In this document: piece by piece, positions 2,949 through 42,961 of the stretch | How the letters are laid out: each line of letters opens with the position of its first letter | Position numbering within the stretch: the stretch's first letter is position 1 | NCBI GenBank assembly: GCA_964505635.1 | Contig: CAZDIP010000004.1 | Coordinates: 7,198-71,197 of the forward strand | Direction: 5' to 3' | Source: an uncultured Candidatus Saccharibacteria bacterium | Lineage (GTDB): Bacteria; Patescibacteriota; Doudnabacteria; UBA920 | DNA: 64,000 nucleotides | Translations under genes and position numbers: made by a program | Notes under the pieces: model-generated | Told to the model about the DNA's origin: nothing | The model's database searches: none | What the model saw: only the letters and a program-made list of their open reading frames with translations

Positions 2949-2971
2949 TAGGTGTTTAAAATGAAATTCAC

Positions 2972-2996
2972 GGCCTCGCAATCGCGGGGCTGTTTT
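2972..2996 (+). terminator. Rho-independent terminator hairpin (ggcctcgc-aatc-gcggggctg + TTTT)
   Basis: Near-identical copy of the 2041..2066 hairpin, directly after the sigma-gene stop. It overlaps the 5' end of the track ORF 2952.., which argues that tgt starts at 3036. Confidence 0.7.
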
Positions 2997-3035
2997 AGCT
3001 TTGTACTTTATACCAAATACTTTATACTATTTAAT

Positions 3036-4202
3036 ATGCCTTATTTTGAAATTATAAAATCAGGTTCCGCATCCAAAGCCCGCTGTGGGGTTATTCATAC
3101 CGAGCACGGAGACGTTATGACCCCTACCTTTTTACCTATTGGCACAAAGGGCGCGGTTAAAACCGTGACTGCCGAAGAACTTAAATTTTGGGGTGCCGAT
3201 ATTATACTTGCCAACACCTACCACCTTTGGCAACGTCCTGGTGATGCTTTAATTTATAAAGCCGGGGGCTTACATAAATTCATGAATTGGAAAGGCCCGA
3301 TTTTTACCGATTCAGGCGGCTTTCAGGTTTTTAGCCTTGCAAAAATGCGAAAAGTTATGGAAGCCGGGGTGCTTTTCCAATTTGACTTAGACGGCAAGCA
3401 GGAAATTTTGTCCCCGGAAAAAAGCGTGGATATCCAGGCAAATTTAGGCAGCGATATTTGTTTAATTTTGGACGATTTTCCAGGTTACCCTTTTGAATAT
3501 GAAAGAAGTAAAGAATCCATTGCGCTTACAAAAAGGTGGGCAGAGCGCGCTATAAAAGAGCACCAAAAAATAGTTTTAGATGGCGACCCCATAAACCCCG
3601 GGCAAAAACTTTGGGGCATAGTTCAGGGCGCTTCGTTTAAAGACTTGCGCGAGCAGTCGGCCAAAGACATGGTGAATTTAGGCTTTGAAGGTTTTGCCAT
3701 CGGCGGCGTGGCGGTAGGCGAGCCGCATAAGGAAATGATGCTTGCTGTAGAAGCAGCTATGCCGCATTTGCCCGAGACTGCGCCCAAGCATTTACTGGGC
3801 GTTGGTACGCCTTTTGACATTGTCCAGGCAGTGGCTCGGGGCTGCGATACTTTTGACTGCGTAATACCGACAAGGGAAGCGAGGCATGGAAGACTATATA
3901 TAAGTAGCAGGTATCAAGTAGAAAGTAGCAAGCAACAGACAGATGGTTATTCAACTTTAGACATTAGGCTTGAAAGATACAAAGAAGACTTTACGCCAGT
4001 CGATAATACTTGCGACTGTTATTTGTGCCTTAACCACACCAAGTCTTACTTGCGTCATTTATTCCAAACCGGCGAGCCTTTGGCGGAGAGACTTGCCACT
4101 ATGCACAACTTAAAGTTTTATTTAAATTTAATGAAGAAAATCCGTAACGCCATAACTTACGATTATTTTGACGAGATGGCGGAGAATTATAGGGAAGTAT
4201 AA
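3036..4202 (+). CDS. tgt: Queuine tRNA-ribosyltransferase
   Basis: PTFLPIGTKGAVK...ILANTYHLW...FTDSGGFQ motifs and the C-terminal zinc site CDCYLC...H. Start moved to the ATG at 3036 (MPYFEIIKSG) because the upstream part of the track ORF overlaps the terminator hairpin. Confidence 0.9.
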   Translation: MPYFEIIKSGSASKARCGVIHTEHGDVMTPTFLPIGTKGAVKTVTAEELKFWGADIILANTYHLWQRPGDALIYKAGGLHKFMNWKGPIFTDSGGFQVFSLAKMRKVMEAGVLFQFDLDGKQEILSPEKSVDIQANLGSDICLILDDFPGYPFEYERSKESIALTKRWAERAIKEHQKIVLDGDPINPGQKLWGIVQGASFKDLREQSAKDMVNLGFEGFAIGGVAVGEPHKEMMLAVEAAMPHLPETAPKHLLGVGTPFDIVQAVARGCDTFDCVIPTREARHGRLYISSRYQVESSKQQTDGYSTLDIRLERYKEDFTPVDNTCDCYLCLNHTKSYLRHLFQTGEPLAERLATMHNLKFYLNLMKKIRNAITYDYFDEMAENYREV

Positions 4203-4278
4203 AAGTAGTAGGTAGTGAGTAATTAGCAAAAAAGTTAGTCCGAAAAGCGGGGTGACTTTTTTTATGAGCCCTAAAAAA

Positions 4279-4304
4279 CCATTCCGAGCGCAGCGAGGAA
4301 TCCC
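4279..4304. repeat. Family-1 palindromic repeat copy A (ccATTCCGAGCGcaGCGAGGAATccc), intergenic
   Basis: Other copies at 7631-7657 (inside pepP), 36946-36974 (rpsL leader) and 41555-41578 (tuf leader). Confidence 0.8.
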
Positions 4305-4377
4305 TTTATGCAAAGATTTTTGAATATTTTAAGGGATACTTCGCTTCGTTCTGTATGGTTGAGCCAGGTTTTTTGGC

Positions 4378-6437: not shown

Positions 6438-6546
6438 AAAAATTGATTTATGAATTTAACTATGCCCAAAGACCGAAAGTGTTTGTGGATAGTGGGAGTT
6501 GGAGTAGTAATAATTTTATCATTGGGCGAAATTTTGACAAACAAGT

Positions 6547-6852
6547 ATGAAAGTATTTGATGAATTAACAGGCGGAGTATATAGAAAAGGCGAATCGAGA
6601 GAAAGTTTGCTAAAAAGAGCCAAGGAAAAATTTCCGGATCAATTTTCTAAAATAGACTCGTTAAAAGAATTTTATTTTGACCCTATTTTAAAAGAGAGAT
6701 TTTTAGATTTAGAGACCAGCCTTATGCAGTGTGTGGAAAACGGATACCAACACAGGGAACTCTCAGAAATGCTTAATGAGTGGGAAAAAGAGTATGAATT
6801 TTTAAAAACACATGCAAAGCGACTTGATTCAAATTCTCAAAAAGCGGCTTAA
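6547..6852 (+). CDS. Hypothetical protein (101 aa)
   Basis: ORF track only; overlaps the start of the next gene by 41 nt. Confidence 0.35.
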   Translation: MKVFDELTGGVYRKGESRESLLKRAKEKFPDQFSKIDSLKEFYFDPILKERFLDLETSLMQCVENGYQHRELSEMLNEWEKEYEFLKTHAKRLDSNSQKAA

Positions 6853-8011
6853 ACATCCAATCTTAATTAAGAAAAAAGAAAACCTGCTGTATTTAACCGG
6901 CAGGAGCTTTGATTACAGGGCGGAGGAATATCTGTTAATTTTACCCCTCACCCCCACCCTCTCCCACAAGGGGAGAGGGGGAGATAGTGTGATTGGGTTT
7001 GGCAGCGGGCTTGAGCAGATAGATTGGGTCAAAAAGTCAGATAGGCTAAAGAACATCGGCCAATATTTAAAAGGTTATAAACAGTTGGATATTGAGTACG
7101 GGTTTACTTATGGGGAAGGAGAATATTTGAAATATAAGATTTCCTCCTTCGCTAAAGCTATGGCGGACAAGTCAGATTTAGGATATAAGATTTTGGTGAA
7201 ACCGGAAAGAAGTTTGGTTGATGTTATGAGGCAGATAAAAAGCATGGAGGAACTGTCTAAAATAAAAAAATCAATGCAGATTGTAGAGAAAGTATTTGCG
7301 CTTGTAAGAAAAGAAGTTAAAAAATCGGGGATGACGGAGAGAAAATTGGCTGATTTTATTACCAAGACTGGTTATAAATTTGGCGCACACGATGTTTCTT
7401 TTCCAGCAATTATAGCAAGCAGGGCAAATGCTGCTATACCTCACCATGTCCCATCAAACAAGTTTTTAAAAGCGGGGGAAAGCATAATTATAGATTTTGG
7501 TTTTAAGTACAAAAATTACTGCAGCGACTTTACGCGTACGGTGTTTTTAAAAAAAGTGCCCAAAAAATTGGAAATTGCCTATAATCAAGTAGAAAAGGCG
7601 TATAATGGAAGTATGGAGTATATCTCAAATCCATCCCGAGCGCGGCCGAGGGATCCCTCAAAACAAGAAAAAGGGATTCTTCCCCCGCATCAAGTGCGGG
7701 GTCTGAATGGTAATACAATTACCGGTAATGATGTTTATCAAAAAGTTGTTGATATTTTGGCTGAAAAAAAATTAGACAAATATTTTATTCATTCTTTAGG
7801 CCATGGTACGGGTTTGGAAATTCACGAATTGCCCAATCTTTCGCCCGACTCAAAAGATGAACTTAAAAATGGAATGGTTTTTAGCATTGAACCGGGAGTG
7901 TATATCCCTAAATTAGGTGGTATAAGAATTGAAGATTTGGTATATTTACAAAATGGCAAAGTTAATAAATTTATTAATGTTTCAGCGAAACTAAAGGATA
8001 ATATTTTATGA
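6812..8011 (+). CDS. pepP: Xaa-Pro aminopeptidase / M24B family metallopeptidase; contains two repeat-derived in-frame segments
   Basis: Creatinase-like N-domain, then the M24 catalytic core (HDVSFPAIIASRANAAIPHH...DFGFKYKNYCSDFTRT...HSLGHGTGLEIHE...EPGVY...RIEDLV). Repeat copies lie in frame at 6944-6984 and 7631-7710. Confidence 0.85.
   Translation: MQSDLIQILKKRLKHPILIKKKENLLYLTGRSFDYRAEEYLLILPLTPTLSHKGRGGDSVIGFGSGLEQIDWVKKSDRLKNIGQYLKGYKQLDIEYGFTYGEGEYLKYKISSFAKAMADKSDLGYKILVKPERSLVDVMRQIKSMEELSKIKKSMQIVEKVFALVRKEVKKSGMTERKLADFITKTGYKFGAHDVSFPAIIASRANAAIPHHVPSNKFLKAGESIIIDFGFKYKNYCSDFTRTVFLKKVPKKLEIAYNQVEKAYNGSMEYISNPSRARPRDPSKQEKGILPPHQVRGLNGNTITGNDVYQKVVDILAEKKLDKYFIHSLGHGTGLEIHELPNLSPDSKDELKNGMVFSIEPGVYIPKLGGIRIEDLVYLQNGKVNKFINVSAKLKDNIL
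6944..6984. repeat. Family-2 palindromic element (ccctcacccccaccctctccc-acaa-ggggagagggggaga), in frame inside pepP
   Basis: Shares the ctcccacaaggggaga hairpin core with the rpsG copy and the ccctcacccc / gggggaga ends with the nfo copy. Confidence 0.75.
7631..7710. repeat. Family-1 repeat copy B plus adjacent ccccgca-tcaagt-gcgggg hairpin, in frame inside pepP
   Basis: ccatcccgagcgcggccgagggatccc is ~85% identical to the intergenic copies. Confidence 0.75.
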
Positions 8012-9548: not shown

Positions 9549-10493
9549 GTGCTATCTATTGGCTGTCATGTTAGCGCCGCTGGAGGAGTCTGGAACGCGC
9601 CTAAAAATGCGGCTAATTTGGAATGCGAAACTTTTCAAATTTTTACCAGGCCGCCTATGGGCGGACCAGCGCCTAAAATAGATGAAGAAGCAGCGGACAA
9701 GTTTAAGACCGAGATGGAAAAGTATAAGTTTACAGACTTCGTTATTCATTGCCCTTATATTGTTAATTTTGGTTCTGCTAAAAAACCTACATATCACGGC
9801 TCTATTGGTATTGTTTCCGAAGAACTTAAACGGGCAAATAGTTTGGGAGCAAAATTGGTAATGACCCACTTAGGAAGCTTTAAGGACTTAGGGCAAGAAA
9901 AAGGCATGAAGCAGACGCAAAAAGGTTTTGTGGAAGTTTTGGAAAAATATGAAAAGGCATCAAAGAACCCAAAAACCGAATTTTTGCTGGAAATAGCAGC
10001 CGGTAGTGGGGAAGTTATTGGCGACACTTTTGAAGAATTGGCGGAGCTTATGGAACCCTTAAAGAAATTTAAAACTTTCGGGGGAATTTGTTTTGACACC
10101 CAGCATGCTTTTTCAAGCGGTTACGACATTAGAGATAAAAAATCTGTTATAGAGACATTTAAAAAGTTTGAAAAAGTAATAGGCCTTAAGTGGCTTAAAA
10201 TGTCGCACATTAACGACTCCAAAGTGCCTTTGGGCGGCAAGAAAGACAGGCATGAGCATATTGGCGATGGGGAAATAGGGAAAAAGGGGTTTGAGGCGCT
10301 GATTGGATATTTTGAAACCCTCACCCCAAAAACCCTCTCTACCCCTCGGCTTCGTTCGGGGCATCAACGCCAGGCGGGGGAGAAAAATAATGTTGCTTTC
10401 GGCGGCTTTCCCTTGATTCTTGAGACAGAGCATGATAAAGTCAAAAAAGATATAGAAATATTAAAAAATATAAGAAATAAAATTTATGTTTAA
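9549..10493 (+). CDS. nfo: Endonuclease IV (AP endonuclease, TIM-barrel) with a ~28-aa repeat-derived in-frame insertion near the C-terminus
   Basis: GTG start; MLSIGCHVSAAGG...HCPYIVN...MTHLGS...DTQHAFSSGYD...DRHEHIGDGEIG...PLILET. Insertion TLTPKTLSTPRLRSGHQRQAGEKNNVA relative to E. coli Nfo. Confidence 0.85.
   Translation: MLSIGCHVSAAGGVWNAPKNAANLECETFQIFTRPPMGGPAPKIDEEAADKFKTEMEKYKFTDFVIHCPYIVNFGSAKKPTYHGSIGIVSEELKRANSLGAKLVMTHLGSFKDLGQEKGMKQTQKGFVEVLEKYEKASKNPKTEFLLEIAAGSGEVIGDTFEELAELMEPLKKFKTFGGICFDTQHAFSSGYDIRDKKSVIETFKKFEKVIGLKWLKMSHINDSKVPLGGKKDRHEHIGDGEIGKKGFEALIGYFETLTPKTLSTPRLRSGHQRQAGEKNNVAFGGFPLILETEHDKVKKDIEILKNIRNKIYV
10317..10386. repeat. Family-2-related element inside nfo, in frame
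   Basis: accctcaccccaaaaaccctctct...cgccaggcgggggaga. The internal ccaggcgggg also resembles the intergenic hairpin at 36795-36815. Confidence 0.65.
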
Positions 10494-15258: not shown

Positions 15259-15297
15259 GATTCCGGATATCTCGCTTCAGGAGATTCCGGAATGACA
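15259..15297. promoter_or_regulatory. Near-perfect palindrome ggattccggatatctc...gagattccggaat between divergent genes (possible operator)
   Basis: Inverted repeat arms tccggatatctc / gagattccgga immediately upstream of the NUDIX gene start. Confidence 0.35.
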
Positions 15298-36738: not shown

Positions 36739-36945
36739 GCTAGTTTGACATTTTAGCTCTAGTTGGGTAAAATAAGAATAATTGAATAAGAAACCCCCCG
36801 CCCAGGCGGGGAATTACTCAATTTGTCGATGTGTTTGAGAAGTTAATCCTAAAGGTTTCAGGATAGTATCGAACGCACGAAGTAGCAAAAATCCAAAGTT
36901 TTGCGCGTGGATTTTTTTGTTGCTTGGAATAATAATTTAAGTAGT

Positions 36946-36974
36946 CACCATTCCGAACGTAAGTGAGGAATTCC
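36946..36974. repeat. Family-1 repeat copy C (degenerate) in the rpsL upstream region
   Basis: caccattccgaacgtaagtgaggaattcc. Confidence 0.6.
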
Positions 36975-37043
36975 TTATATTATGAAGGGATCCTTCTCCG
37001 CCAGCCGGCGGATCTGGATGGCGGCAGAAGGAATTAAGAAATA

Positions 37044-37457
37044 ATGCCTACTATAAATCAGCTCGTACGAAAAGGCCGCAGGCCTTTAAAGGCCAAGAGC
37101 AAATCTCCGGCGCTTCAGCGCAGGATAAACTTGATTAAAAATCGGGTAATTCCTTTAAAAACCGGTTCGCCTTTTATGCGCGGGGTTTGTTTAAAGGTTT
37201 ATACCACCACGCCAAAAAAGCCGAACTCAGCTTTGCGCAAAGTGGCTAAGGTCAAATTGACTAATGGGATGGAAGTTATTGCTTACATTCCAGGCATTGG
37301 CCATAATTTGCAGGAACACTCGGTGGTTATGATCCGCGGCGGCAGGGTAAAAGACTTGCCTGGCGTGCGCTATCATATTGTTAGAGGAAAACTGGACACA
37401 CTAGGCGTTGACGGTCGAAAACGCGGCAGAAGTAAATATGGAGCGAAAAATAAGTAA
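37044..37457 (+). CDS. rpsL: 30S ribosomal protein S12
   Basis: [12 protein letters not shown]...; 137 aa. Confidence 0.97.
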
Positions 37458-37560: not shown

Positions 37561-38157
37561 ATGCCAAGAAAATCACGTTCATACGACAAACACACTCCCG
37601 ATCCGGATCCAAAATACGGTTCGGTTAAATATGCTAAATTTATTAACTATTTAATGGAGCGCGGCAAAAAAAATGTAGCCCGCAAGATTTTTTACGATGC
37701 CTTGGAAATAGTGGGGGAAAAGGCGAAAGATTTAGCTAAATCTGCGCCGGTTGCTTCAAAGACCCCCTCATCTGCCGCGTCTAAAGACGCGGCACCTTCT
37801 CCCACAAGGGGAGAAGGAAATAAGGAAAAATCTTTGGACGGAAGACAGGTTTTTGATATAGCCTTAAAAAACATAGCGCCGATTATGGAATTAAAGTCCC
37901 GCCGTATTGGCGGAGCTAACTATCAGGTGCCTATGGAAGTTATGGAACCGCGCAAAACCACTCTTGCCATGCGCTGGCTTTTGATTGCCTGCCGTGCGAA
38001 AAAAGGCGCCCGGATGGCCGAAAAGTTGGCCGCTGAAATTATGGAAGCCTTTAACAAACAAGGCGCGGCTATTAAAAAACGCGAAGATGTTCACAGGATG
38101 GCAGAAGCCAACAAAGCTTTTGCTCACTTTGCTAGGTTTGGGAATAAGAGGAGATAA
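37561..38157 (+). CDS. rpsG: 30S ribosomal protein S7 with a ~38-aa repeat-derived in-frame insertion
   Basis: S7 core (KSRRIGGANYQVPMEV...KREDVHRMAEANKAFAHF). 198 aa versus ~156 typical; inserted segment LAKSAPVASKTPSSAASKDAAPSPTRGEGNKEKSLDGR is encoded by palindromic DNA. Confidence 0.93.
   Translation: MPRKSRSYDKHTPDPDPKYGSVKYAKFINYLMERGKKNVARKIFYDALEIVGEKAKDLAKSAPVASKTPSSAASKDAAPSPTRGEGNKEKSLDGRQVFDIALKNIAPIMELKSRRIGGANYQVPMEVMEPRKTTLAMRWLLIACRAKKGARMAEKLAAEIMEAFNKQGAAIKKREDVHRMAEANKAFAHFARFGNKRR
37775..37817. repeat. Family-2 element inside rpsG, in frame (hairpins gccgcgtc-taaa-gacgcggc and cttctccc-acaa-gggagaag)
   Basis: Seen directly; accounts for the S7 insertion. Confidence 0.8.
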
Positions 38158-40751: not shown

Positions 40752-40891
40752 AGCTACAGAAGCTACAGATGGGATGCGCTACAGATGCCTACAGAAAACT
40801 ACAGAAATTAAATAACAAATTTCAAATTAAAAAAAGCGCCGGCGGTGGTGCCGGCGCAAGGCGATCCAGGGAAAGTTGATGGACACAATAA

Positions 40892-41086
40892 TTAGATGTA
40901 TCGGATTGGAATTCCTCGACGCCGGTCCCACCAGTCGCCTATTCCAACAACAATAAGAGTTGCTACCAGAGCACCGGGAATTGTCAGAATGGTTATTGGC
41001 CAAAAAACGTCTTCCAACCCCAGCATCCAGTAAAGGTAGCAGACCAGTCCGTACACCAAAAGAACTACCAGGATGGTTATTATCAT
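40892..41086 (-). CDS. Possible small membrane protein (64 aa) on the minus strand between fusA and tuf
   Basis: Two hydrophobic helices; AGGAA-like RBS upstream on the minus strand. Confidence 0.35.
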   Translation of the reverse strand: MIITILVVLLVYGLVCYLYWMLGLEDVFWPITILTIPGALVATLIVVGIGDWWDRRRGIPIRYI

Positions 41087-41152
41087 GGATGTTCCTGTTT
41101 CTTTTTCAGATTTAATCTATCAGTTTATCCAGAGAATGTAAATATAGAATTT

Positions 41153-41491
41153 ATGTCTACATTAAATGATTTAATCAAACTAGCAAAGGCGGACGGGGGA
41201 AAGTTTTTTGTGCTGGATGAAGCTGGCGAGGTAAAGTTGGTTATAATGCCTTTGGAAGAATATAAAAGTTTGACTGTGGGCAAGGCTGTAAAATCTGCTT
41301 TAGACCCGGAAACGGTTAATAAGCAAATTATCAAAGCCCAACTTGAAGACGTTTCTGAACTTACACCCGCATCTGCGCCAAAAAGCCCGCAAGTGCAGAG
41401 CCTGGATTTGGAAAAACGCGATTTAAGGGAAGAAGTTATAGATTTAAGTTTTGATTTTGACGGACCAAAAACTGATTTTGACGACCTGTAA
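41153..41491 (+). CDS. Hypothetical acidic protein (112 aa)
   Basis: ORF track. Confidence 0.4.
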   Translation: MSTLNDLIKLAKADGGKFFVLDEAGEVKLVIMPLEEYKSLTVGKAVKSALDPETVNKQIIKAQLEDVSELTPASAPKSPQVQSLDLEKRDLREEVIDLSFDFDGPKTDFDDL

Positions 41492-41506
41492 AGTACAAAG
41501 TACAAG

Positions 41507-41535
41507 TTGACATAAAGTTATTTTTTGGGTAAAAT
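41507..41535 (+). promoter_or_regulatory. Sigma-70-type promoter TTGACA-17-TAAAAT with ~245-nt leader to tuf
   Basis: Consensus -35, 17-nt spacer, -10 TAAAAT. The leader contains a family-1 repeat copy and GC hairpins. Confidence 0.5.
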
Positions 41536-41554
41536 TTTTTTGCAACTTCCGGCG

Positions 41555-41578
41555 TCATTCCGAGCGTGGCGAGGAATC
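41555..41578. repeat. Family-1 repeat copy D in the tuf 5' leader
   Basis: tcattccgagcgtggcgaggaatc. Confidence 0.8.
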
Positions 41579-41779
41579 TACTAAATATGATCTGATTTTT
41601 GACTTCGTTTGGGATGATGCCGAAAGACTGAGTTAATAAAACTAATAAATTAATCGTAGCCCTGGATTCCGAAAGGATAGAAAGAGAAAAACCCTTGGCT
41701 TTGCGCCGATCGATAGGCGCGGGGTTAAGGGTTTCTCGGGCGAAATTCCGCCTCTGGCGGGATAAGAAAGGTAAAATAA

Positions 41780-42961
41780 ATGGCAGACAAGTTTGACAGA
41801 AGCAAAACCCACGTAAACGTGGGTACCATTGGCCACGTTGACCATGGTAAAACCACATTAACCGCGGCAATTACCACCGTGCTTTCCAAAACCGGCGGTG
41901 CGAAAGCCAGGGCTTACGACAGCATTGACAATGCCCCGGAAGAAAAGGCTCGCGGTATTACCATTAATACCGCCCACGTGGAATATGAAAGCGCCAAGCG
42001 CCACTATGCCCACGTAGACTGTCCGGGTCACGCTGACTACATCAAAAACATGATTACCGGCGCCGCTCAAATGGACGGGGCGATTTTGGTAGTTTCAGCC
42101 GCTGACGGACCTATGCCGCAGACTCGCGAACACATTTTGCTCGCCCGCCAGGTAGGCGTGCCGTACATTGTGGTTTATATGAACAAGTGCGACATGGTGC
42201 AGGACAAGGAACTTTTGGACTTGGTGGAAGAAGAAATCCGCGACTTGCTCAACAAGTACGAATTTCCCGGCAAAGACACCCCAATTATCCGCGGCAGCGC
42301 CTTAAAAGCTTTGGAAGGCGACGCGGAATATGAAAAAACCATTCATCAATTGGTTGAAACTTTGGATAGTTATATCCCGGATCCGGTTAGAGAAACCGAC
42401 AAGCCTTTCCTAATGCCGATTGAAGATATATTCTCAATCGAAGGCCGAGGAACTGTGGTTACCGGAAGAATTGAACGCGGACAAGTTAAAGTCAACGAAG
42501 AAATTGAAATTGTCGGTATTCGCCCAACAACTAAAACCGTAGTAACTGGTATTGAAATGTTTAATAAGCAGTTAGACAGCGGTTTGGCAGGGGACAATGC
42601 CGGTGTTTTGCTTCGCGGCACTAAAAAAGACGAAGTGGAACGCGGCCAGGTTTTGTGCAAGCCGGGATCCATTAACCCGCATACTGAATTTGAAGCTGAG
42701 GTTTATATTTTAACCAAAGAAGAAGGCGGTCGACACACCCCGTTCTTTAAAGGTTATAAGCCGCAATTTTATGTCCGCACTACCGATGTGACCGGTGAAG
42801 TGATTTTGCCGGAAGGCCAGGAAATGGTTATGCCGGGCGACACCGTTAAATTGGTTATTAAATTAATTACTCCGGTGGCTTTGGAAGAAAAGGGCAAGTT
42901 TGCCATTCGCGAAGGCGGTCATACTGTAGGAGCCGGTGTTGTTACCAAGATCATCAAATAA
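41780..42961 (+). CDS. tuf: Elongation factor Tu
   Basis: GHVDHGKTT...DCPGHADY...NKCD; 393 aa. Confidence 0.98.

Follow-up and report, generated by a model that had tools for sequence, protein, structure and literature searches.

Four copies of a short palindrome are scattered over the window, i.e. the whole 64-kb stretch of DNA analysed here: one lies behind tgt, one in the coding sequence of a pepP-like gene, and two in the leaders of rpsL and tuf. These positions raise the question of whether the repeats are regulators of the operons that they precede or copies of a mobile element that happened to settle there. The original prediction had allowed for both, comparing the palindrome with selfish REP and RPE families and proposing in addition a regulatory or RNA-structural role in the two leaders.

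Repeat copies in the window and their anatomy

Pattern searches located four copies of CATYCCGARCG-N3/4-YGAGGRAT on the + strand, at the places where they had been predicted. Exact matches to CATTCCGAGCG-N3-CGAGGAATC are found at 4280-4302 and 41556-41578, and matches to the repeat core with a four-base loop at 7632-7655 (2 mismatches) and 36949-36972 (3 mismatches); the N4 loop originally assigned to the whole family holds for this second pair, the first having three loop bases. In 100 dinucleotide-preserving shuffles there were 0 matches, in the N3 search and in the N4 search alike. The gene context was also correctly described, since open reading frames were located for TGT (2952-4202, 5′ of the first copy), an M24 peptidase (pepP-like, 6812-8011, + strand, Pfam match) that hosts the second copy in frame, ribosomal protein S12 (37044-37457), followed by S7 and EF-G, and EF-Tu (41780-42961). 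Named homologues place the host in Candidatus Doudnabacteria (Patescibacteria/CPR). Two promoter-like sequences of the form TTGACA-17-TAAAAT, called from their consensus match alone, are present on the + strand: one at 36745-36773, upstream of the copy in the rpsL leader, and one at 41507-41535 (11/12), which ends 18 nt before the tuf copy, in agreement with the earlier placement of that copy just downstream of a consensus promoter.

The palindrome of approximately 25 nt is real, but this description understates the element, as every copy turned out to open an inverted doublet some 65-85 nt long, in which unit A (+) is followed by a spacer of 15-30 nt and a reverse-oriented unit B. Doublet 1, intergenic and after tgt, comprises unit A at 4278-4302 (+; ACC tag, ATTCC-GA-GC[GCA]GC-GA-GGAAT, tail C) and a degenerate unit B at 4333-4358 (−; reverse complement CCATACAGAACGAAGCGAAGTATCCC, read by eye and from folding). 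Doublet 2, in pepP, comprises unit A at 7630-7655 (+; TCC tag, ATCCC-GA-GCGCGGC-C-GA-GGGAT, tail C), which encodes PSRARPRD, and unit B at 7673-7710 (−; reverse complement CCATTCAGA-CCCCGCA-CTTGA-TGCGGGG-GAAGAATCCC); the second GC hairpin that had been noticed behind the pepP copy is this inverted partner. Doublet 3, in the rpsL leader, has its unit A at 36947-36972 (+; ACC tag, ATTCC-GA-AC[GTAA]GT-GA-GGAAT, tail T) and its unit B at 36987-37021 (−; reverse complement CCATCCAGA-TCCGCC-GGCT-GGCGGA-GAAGGATCCC), ending 22 nt before the rpsL ATG; the B units of doublets 2 and 3 share a longer G+C upper stem. Doublet 4, in the tuf leader, has at 41554-41578 (+) the only unit A with the canonical GTC tag (GTC-ATTCC-GA-GC[GTG]GC-GA-GGAAT-C) and at 41594-41618 (−; reverse complement ATCATCCCAAACGAAGTCAAAAATC) a decayed unit B that was recognised by eye and is weak (folding z = −0.2). 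A related perfect-stem unit with a GTC tag lies between genes at 15259-15297 (−; reverse complement GTCATTCCGGA-ATCTCCTGAAGCGAGATA-TCCGGAATCC).

All units follow one plan: a tag, AT-NNN, GA, a short G+C upper stem with its loop, GA, N′N′N′-AT and a tail. The stem consists of nine positions beginning with AT, in which five Watson-Crick pairs are followed by tandem G.A/A.G at positions 6-7 and then by at least two G-C pairs, closed by a loop of 3-4 nt; this form is called the GA variant below. In the rpsL copy, with its GTAA loop, an inner G-C pair is replaced by A-T on both sides and the fold is kept. Both arms have the context 5′-C-GA-G-3′, which in DNA favours tandem G.A pairs of the sheared kind; a classic stable DNA mini-hairpin is GCGAAGC. 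Folded as DNA, doublet 1 forms one long hairpin (−19.4 kcal/mol, z = −6.8) and is the only sequence of the set to stand out. Single units folded no better than shuffled sequences under nearest-neighbour DNA parameters, which give G.A pairs no credit; the hairpin structure is accepted here because of covariation (see below), not because of folding energy.

The tag is GTC in one of the four window copies (CGTC at 41553-41556), the other three reading AACC, ATCC and CACC; the tail C is present in three of the four. Elsewhere in the family the outer ends of a doublet read GTC...GAC. The CC tag of three window units recurs in the pepP units of two orthologous loci (L242, L243) and is matched by the outer ends of the partner units (...ATGG), a symmetry which makes the change look like a sub-family trait and not like decay. 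In all four window copies the tagged strand is the coding strand (two-sided probability 0.125, four copies in 64 kb giving no power to detect enrichment). The coding strand of the copies is G-rich across the whole window, and we take it to be the leading strand. None of the four insertions shows a target-site duplication; a classification as MITE was rejected because of this, although the units do serve as inverted termini.

A repeat family shared across phyla and its association with Ssn-type genes

An exact scan for the 20-base core in 596 Gb of sequence, with one genome per species, returned more than 120 stretches or species from at least 13 phyla among the matches listed, where about two chance occurrences are expected by our own arithmetic. 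Hosts among these matches include Chloroflexota, Acidobacteriota, Verrucomicrobiota, Planctomycetota, Bacteroidota (with a cultured Hymenobacter), Bacillota, Nitrospirota, Gemmatimonadota, Armatimonadota, Pseudomonadota, Desulfobacterota, Bdellovibrionota and Patescibacteria, together with one Nanoarchaeota MAG. The core was also present on 35 viral contigs, and the plasmid and E. coli collections gave one partial Natrinema match and nothing more. In 133 of the 136 core copies among the matches listed GT precedes CAT, though the pattern had left that position free; T or C follows the core in 129/136, and an inverted partner lies within 120 nt in 62/136. The partners often carry other stem triplets (ATGTC/GACAT, ATCCT/AGGAT). 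At loci that were not selected by the pattern, NNN/N′N′N′ is fully complementary in 24 of 28 distinct units representing eight triplet types, whereas shuffling of the partners gave 5 on average and never more than 13; the tail C is present in 26 of these 28, and GTC, AT, the two GA and the tail C are invariant across triplet types. The triplet covariation supporting the hairpin is genuine. Falling below chance had been named beforehand as one outcome that would count against the repeat. An origin by chance or base composition, for which the short length of the motif and nothing else speaks, can be practically dismissed in view of the covariation, the empty shuffles and the hundreds of exact copies with conserved flanks that had not been asked for.

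The unit plan recalls two published groups of repeats. CGTC-tagged REPs have an unpaired CGTC or TGTC tag (variants TGTC/CCTC), stems of 8-9 bp opening with A-T and T-A, short loops (4-5 nt) and tails, and occur mostly as head-to-head dimers with spacers of 20-100 nt, in-frame dimers encoding 20-30 amino acids; no dedicated transposase is known for them (PMC3733652). Their superfamily, CGTC-1 to CGTC-4, takes in dRS3 of Neisseria and RPE-6 and RPE-4 of Rickettsia (Di Nocera et al. 2013, PMC3733652). The window repeats share with them the short tail and the dimeric state of all four copies, with the pepP dimer in frame; their AT-first stem has nine positions with G.A/A.G at 6-7, their loop is 3-4 nt long, and the (C/T)GTC tag, found across the wider family, is present in one of the four. 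They differ in that CGTC REPs were reported from five phyla, compared to at least 13 for the GA variant, and in that the intragenic peptides of CGTC REPs (VIPAKAGI, RHSGGGRNL, VIPWLDHGI and others) all derive from perfect stems, none being of the GA type (VIPSEARN / HSERSEES) (PMC3733652).

The second group is formed by NTS (CGTCATTCCCGCGMAVGCGGGAATCYRG) and the Ssn-related motifs (SRM), hairpins that flank the gene of a GIY-YIG protein of approximately 100 amino acids, Ssn, in the arrangement NTS-ssnA-NTS in Neisseria (Chenal et al. 2025, PMC11893778). In binding as in cutting, Ssn acts on the hairpin only when it is ssDNA, not dsDNA or RNA, and the characterised homologues cut just upstream of it; for SsnA, cutting is affected by the three bases 5′ of the palindrome and binding by the C that follows. 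In Neisseria the Ssn/NTS pair lowers transformation by NTS-bearing DNA, and mobilisation of its own repeats by Ssn was raised only as an idea (PMC11893778). The GA variant resembles NTS and SRM in its 5′ tag and stem start (CGTCATTCC...), its tail (GGAATC followed by Y), its hairpin with a free loop, its hundreds of dispersed copies and, as described below, the order motif(+)-ssn-motif(−). It is set apart by the tandem G.A/A.G in the stem, a distinct Ssn sub-group, the CC tag in three of four window copies and the CPR host. The published SRM pattern HGTCWYN(0-2)YYVSBRHN(0-5)WNVSBRGN(0-2)RNCYNB is matched by canonical NTS and NTSvar; the consensus of the GA variant and all window copies fail it, the G.A mismatch placing an A at an S position.

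The association with the nuclease gene was observed directly in other genomes. At locus L009 a unit (+) is followed, after a 10-nt gap, by a small GIY-YIG open reading frame (PF01541, 43.5 bits) and then by a unit (−). A metagenome scan with the L009 protein yielded 80 further loci, 81 in all, of Ssn-like genes (a small single-domain GIY-YIG type, cd10448), with PF01541 as the profile scored. Tagged hairpins adjoin the gene in the expected orientation at 59 of the 81 loci, and on both sides at 38 (23 of the GA type and 15 of the perfect-stem type); the two types were found together at none of the 81. Hairpin density was 152 per 59 kb near the gene versus 32 per 129 kb elsewhere in these loci, a difference of approximately tenfold. 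Ssn proteins most similar to that of L009 go with the GA type, those less similar with the perfect type; at the loci closest to L009 (L161-L167, L171-L176) the unit-gene-unit order was confirmed by eye. The Ssn-type gene bracketed by inverted units encodes approximately 95 amino acids. The low-GC locus L165 has its Ssn gene flanked by GTCATTCCGAGCGA...TCGAGGAATCCCT, with the tail seen in the window. Among the best 120 matches to the L165 protein all named ones are Patescibacteria (Roizmanbacteria, Falkowbacteria, Liptonbacteria, Minisyncoccia, Absconditicoccaceae and others), with no Doudnabacteria among the names, and a Roizmanbacteria (CPR) Ssn gene at L245 is followed by the reverse complement of GTCATTCCGAGCAACGTCGAGGAATCCC. 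From these unit-flanked loci it follows that the GA variant is an Ssn-associated motif and that CPR bacteria have the enzyme. The window itself contains no GIY-YIG open reading frame, and a jackhmmer search with the L009 protein against all open reading frames collected, the window included, returned L009 itself only.

Another comparison is with the REP/REPIN sequences known from Pseudomonas and E. coli, to which a RAYT (Y1/HUH transposase) gives mobility in trans. The window repeats are similar to these in being imperfect, mostly extragenic palindromes whose doublets can fold as one long hairpin, and the inverted doublet with its spacer, inserted without target-site duplication, speaks for a RAYT. 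Moreover, in the Doudnabacteria relative L241 a Y1_Tnp gene (PF01797, 28.5 bits) lies directly upstream of pepP. That gene is flanked by different, GTAG-tagged palindromes (GTAGTTGC...GCAACTAC), however, and both the Y1 gene and these palindromes are absent from the window. The GA units have GTC-AT instead of the GT[AG]G tag that defines RAYT-associated REPs; no RAYT flanked by such units and no Y1 family enriched near the 120 genome loci was found. In addition, REPs are specific to their RAYT and lineage, whereas the GA core is identical across phyla. We therefore regard mobilisation by a RAYT as improbable. Clustering of the open reading frames within 600 nt of the motif, and of all open reading frames, at 120 genome and 35 viral loci revealed no enriched family and no transposase. 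Rfam searches of the window and eight doublet-bearing loci, with gathering and E-value thresholds, gave nothing beyond tRNAs and spurious miRNA hairpins; in the literature, the DNA strings and encoded peptides were matched only by primers and by chance, and no paper printing the GA-variant sequence was found.

Operon leaders and the pepP loop

The proposal that the leader copies act as cis-regulatory RNA structures of the rpsL and tuf operons has its basis in their location. Each follows a promoter-like site and precedes the start codon, on the strand that is transcribed, the tuf copy would begin approximately 10-20 nt into the transcript, and in a crude survey of 120 genome loci the tagged strand was the coding strand in 31 of 48 unidirectional cases. 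The str-operon regions of four relatives whose EF-Tu is 94-98% identical (L157-L160) were compared for their leaders, and the presence or absence of the repeats was read directly. None of the four has a doublet at the leader positions of the window, and three of them (L157, L159, L160) have no unit there. The fourth, L158, carries doublets of the same superfamily, perfect-stem and GTC-tagged, at other positions: in the gap between promoter and conserved segment of rpsL, in the gap between element and Shine-Dalgarno sequence of tuf, and in the rpsG-fusA spacer. The tuf leader does contain a conserved structured element at 41655-41745 of the window, with 34 predicted pairs, of which 12 show two-sided changes among five sequences, and with no match in Rfam; in the rpsL leader, conservation is seen at about 36815-36885. 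Neither segment includes the repeats; the conserved leader structures are separate segments. Furthermore, the same element also occurs in a coding loop and after tgt, the repeats have no Rfam match, and the characterised Ssn does not bind the RNA form (PMC11893778). The leader doublets fit repeated mobile insertion into tolerant spacers and not conserved regulators; the regulatory role is unsupported, and we judge it very improbable. An incidental RNA effect of the transcribed hairpin may exist.

In the same survey, 32 of 48 unidirectional copies had the stop of the upstream gene nearer to them than the following start codon, and consequently no preference for 5′ leaders is apparent. These figures depend on greedy ORF calls and are indicative only, the 42 cases scored as inside an open reading frame being over-counted in G+C-rich genomes. 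The bias towards upstream stops would suit a role on the 3′ side of genes, which was proposed for CGTC REPs as terminators or mRNA stabilisers by Di Nocera et al. (PMC3733652), and the copy after tgt folds as a long hairpin and is followed by a further hairpin with a T-run. Against such a role, only one of the four window copies sits at a 3′ end, no T-tracts directly follow the units, and the gene calls of the survey are crude. Although compatible with an origin as mobile doublets, this function is doubtful for the copies studied here.

In pepP, the two hairpins had been estimated to encode about 27 residues, and comparison with insert-free orthologs gave an in-frame insert of about 28 codons, around which the Pfam M24 match is split in two stretches. 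As a side observation, five of the six reading frames of the unit sequence are open. Among 70 pepP homologues, the loop after AYNxSMEYIS is short in distant ones, and most close homologues have 10-50 extra residues there, of several sequence types. Each of the five orthologs examined at the DNA level has a doublet of the superfamily whose site is the same or almost so: the window, L242 and L243 carry CCATCCCGAG...CGAGGGATCCC, L241 carries GTCATTCCGGCC... and L244 carries GTCATTGCGAG...; in addition, a different repeat has inserted in nested fashion in L241 and L243. RPE-1 is a longer element whose sequence is unrelated to the GA unit. Like RPE-1, which PMC3733652 mentions, the pepP copy is a selfish palindrome that a housekeeping enzyme accommodates in frame within a surface segment; it differs from RPE-1 in that one loop carries several stem types in different orthologs.

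Without the insert, PepP of the window shares an amino acid identity of 0.80 with L241 and of 0.69-0.70 with L242 and L243. The closest ortholog, L241, carries another stem type, and the stem type departs in this way from the gene tree. Third positions of identical four-fold codons agree at a fraction of 0.37-0.39 among the window, L242 and L243, i.e. they are saturated; in the same three sequences tag, arms and tail of unit A are identical at 21 of 21 positions, and the loop alone differs. Unit A of pepP is either under selection at the nucleotide level or a site that was repeatedly overwritten from other copies. It is possible, if rather unlikely, that some active process at the DNA level maintains the units or copies them anew, in which case they would not be passive relics. 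This would fit a homing-like correction of copies: Ssn would nick the extruded ssDNA hairpin, and repair would draw on another genomic copy. Direct selection for a DNA function, such as the marking of incoming or recombining ssDNA, would fit equally. By analogy with SsnA, the CC tag could mean reduced cutting, and under such an active process the CC-tagged sub-family might be a cut-resistant form.

Origin of the doublets and their meaning

Taken as a class, the family belongs to the already known and very widespread small hairpin repeats that travel with a tiny ssDNA-cutting nuclease; the GA variant with its tandem mismatch is new within the superfamily of CGTC-tagged REPs and Ssn-related motifs. 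This supports the original view of a selfish dispersed palindrome comparable to REP/RPE and provides it with a name. The window copies are probably non-autonomous inverted doublets of this CGTC-tagged REP / SRM (NTS-like) superfamily, and likely gene-less derivatives or relics. In other genomes, including those of CPR bacteria, two inverted units bracket an Ssn-type GIY-YIG gene, and the short doublets of the window would most likely be what such a unit-gene-unit element leaves once the gene is missing. These doublets would have spread, or been copied, into the few sites that a compact genome can spare, namely long leaders of operons, a gap between genes and a surface loop of pepP that accepts insertions. 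We infer that this genome encodes a cognate Ssn and that either Ssn, or host repair after nicking by Ssn, copies the units; an effect on the expression of rpsL or tuf, if any, would be a by-product. Some features speak against this origin: three of the four copies have NCC in place of GTC and one is without the tail C, at positions which, to judge from SsnA of Neisseria, would matter for cutting and binding. The mismatch with the SRM pattern, the absence of a GIY-YIG open reading frame from the 64 kb, the absence of Doudnabacteria from the named Ssn matches listed and the folding of single units, no better than that of shuffles, count against it as well.

For annotation, the family accounts for odd peptides (PSRARPRDP, IPRFARND, VIPSEARN) and for wrongly extended N-termini of MAG proteins. 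These repeats do not reveal a new regulator of ribosomal operons. Instead, an anonymous repeat can be assigned to a system whose characterisation dates only from 2025, and a mismatch-bearing type of hairpin, missed by the published search pattern, proves to be among the most widely shared short sequences that we found across bacterial phyla. As the GA variant has its own Ssn subgroup, these enzymes are candidates for new ssDNA cutting specificities. The variant extends into CPR genomes, including in-frame copies in housekeeping enzymes, where the hairpin arms resist synonymous drift. If the units are indeed actively kept or re-copied, the marking of ssDNA would be of consequence for CPR bacteria, given their dependence on DNA uptake.

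Superfamily units and the pepP neighbourhood of a relative

A fifth unit of the superfamily to which the inverted hairpin doublets belong is located in an intergenic position on the minus strand (15259-15297). This perfect-stem unit carries a GTC tag, has an inner hairpin nested within it, and is similar to units of two relatives, L158 (a str-operon locus) and L241 (the locus of the pepP ortholog closest to that of the window). The exact bacterial core, a 20-nt sequence of the GA-mismatch type, was also present in one Nanoarchaeota MAG (L020) and in 35 IMG/VR viral contigs (L122-L156), at up to four copies per viral contig (in 4.9 kb, L145); the archaeal origin is a MAG label and the viral origin a database label, and binning error is possible for both.

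In L241 (2470-3010), a gene for a 137-aa Y1 (IS200/RAYT-like) transposase is located immediately 5' of pepP, with GTAG-tagged palindromes (GTAGTTGC...GCAACTAC) on both sides. This arrangement is like a REPtron, with a repeat type other than the main one, and no such unit was found in the window.

Palindromes and inserts in coding genes

Close to its N-terminus, pepP carries an in-frame insertion of a second GC-rich palindromic repeat, unrelated to the main one (6944-6985); the repeat reads CCCTCACCCCCACCCTCTCCCACAAGGGGAGAGGG, encodes PLTPTLSHKGRGG, and is also present as an insert in some orthologs. The AP_endonuc_2 gene (9549-10493) contains a related CCCTCACCCC... stretch at 10319-10365. The pepP of the window further comprises a 'SFAKAMADKS' stretch that most orthologs lack. 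Ribosomal protein S7 (37561-38157) is 198 aa long, including a low-complexity insert of about 28 aa (SAPVASKTPSSAASKDAAPSPTRGEGNKEKS) that is absent from two str-operon loci of relatives (L158, L159) and shorter in a third (L160).

Leaders of rpsL and tuf

A segment of the rpsL leader (about 36815-36885), distinct from the repeat doublet of this leader, is conserved upstream of rpsL in L158, L159 and L160; it reads gaattac..ttgtcgat..aggtttc.gga.agta..gaagtag and had no match in Rfam.

The fusA-tuf spacer (40752-41779) is unusually long at 1 kb. It contains a small hydrophobic ORF on the minus strand (about 40870-41095) and a 112-aa ORF on the plus strand (41153-41491), the latter with no Pfam match; at this position the relatives have unannotated ORFs of similar size (110-118 aa). 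Several EF-Tu database entries from relatives (P0125, P0126, P0169, P0194, P0197) are overlong by 30-60 aa; the cause in L158 is an open-frame repeat doublet (6501-6590) ahead of the true start, which was annotated as coding.

Upstream of tuf, a structured leader element is conserved in Doudnabacteria (window 41655-41745; L157 3362-3480, L158 6386-6502, L159 6368-6492, L160 6347-6462), in the order GCCCTGGATTC, a variable hairpin and GAGAAAAACCCTTGGCTTTGCGCC...GGCGCGGGGTTAAGGGTTTCTCGGGC. Among the five sequences compared, 12 of the 34 predicted pairs showed two-sided changes. The element had no match in Rfam, and it could be an EF-Tu leader motif not yet described.
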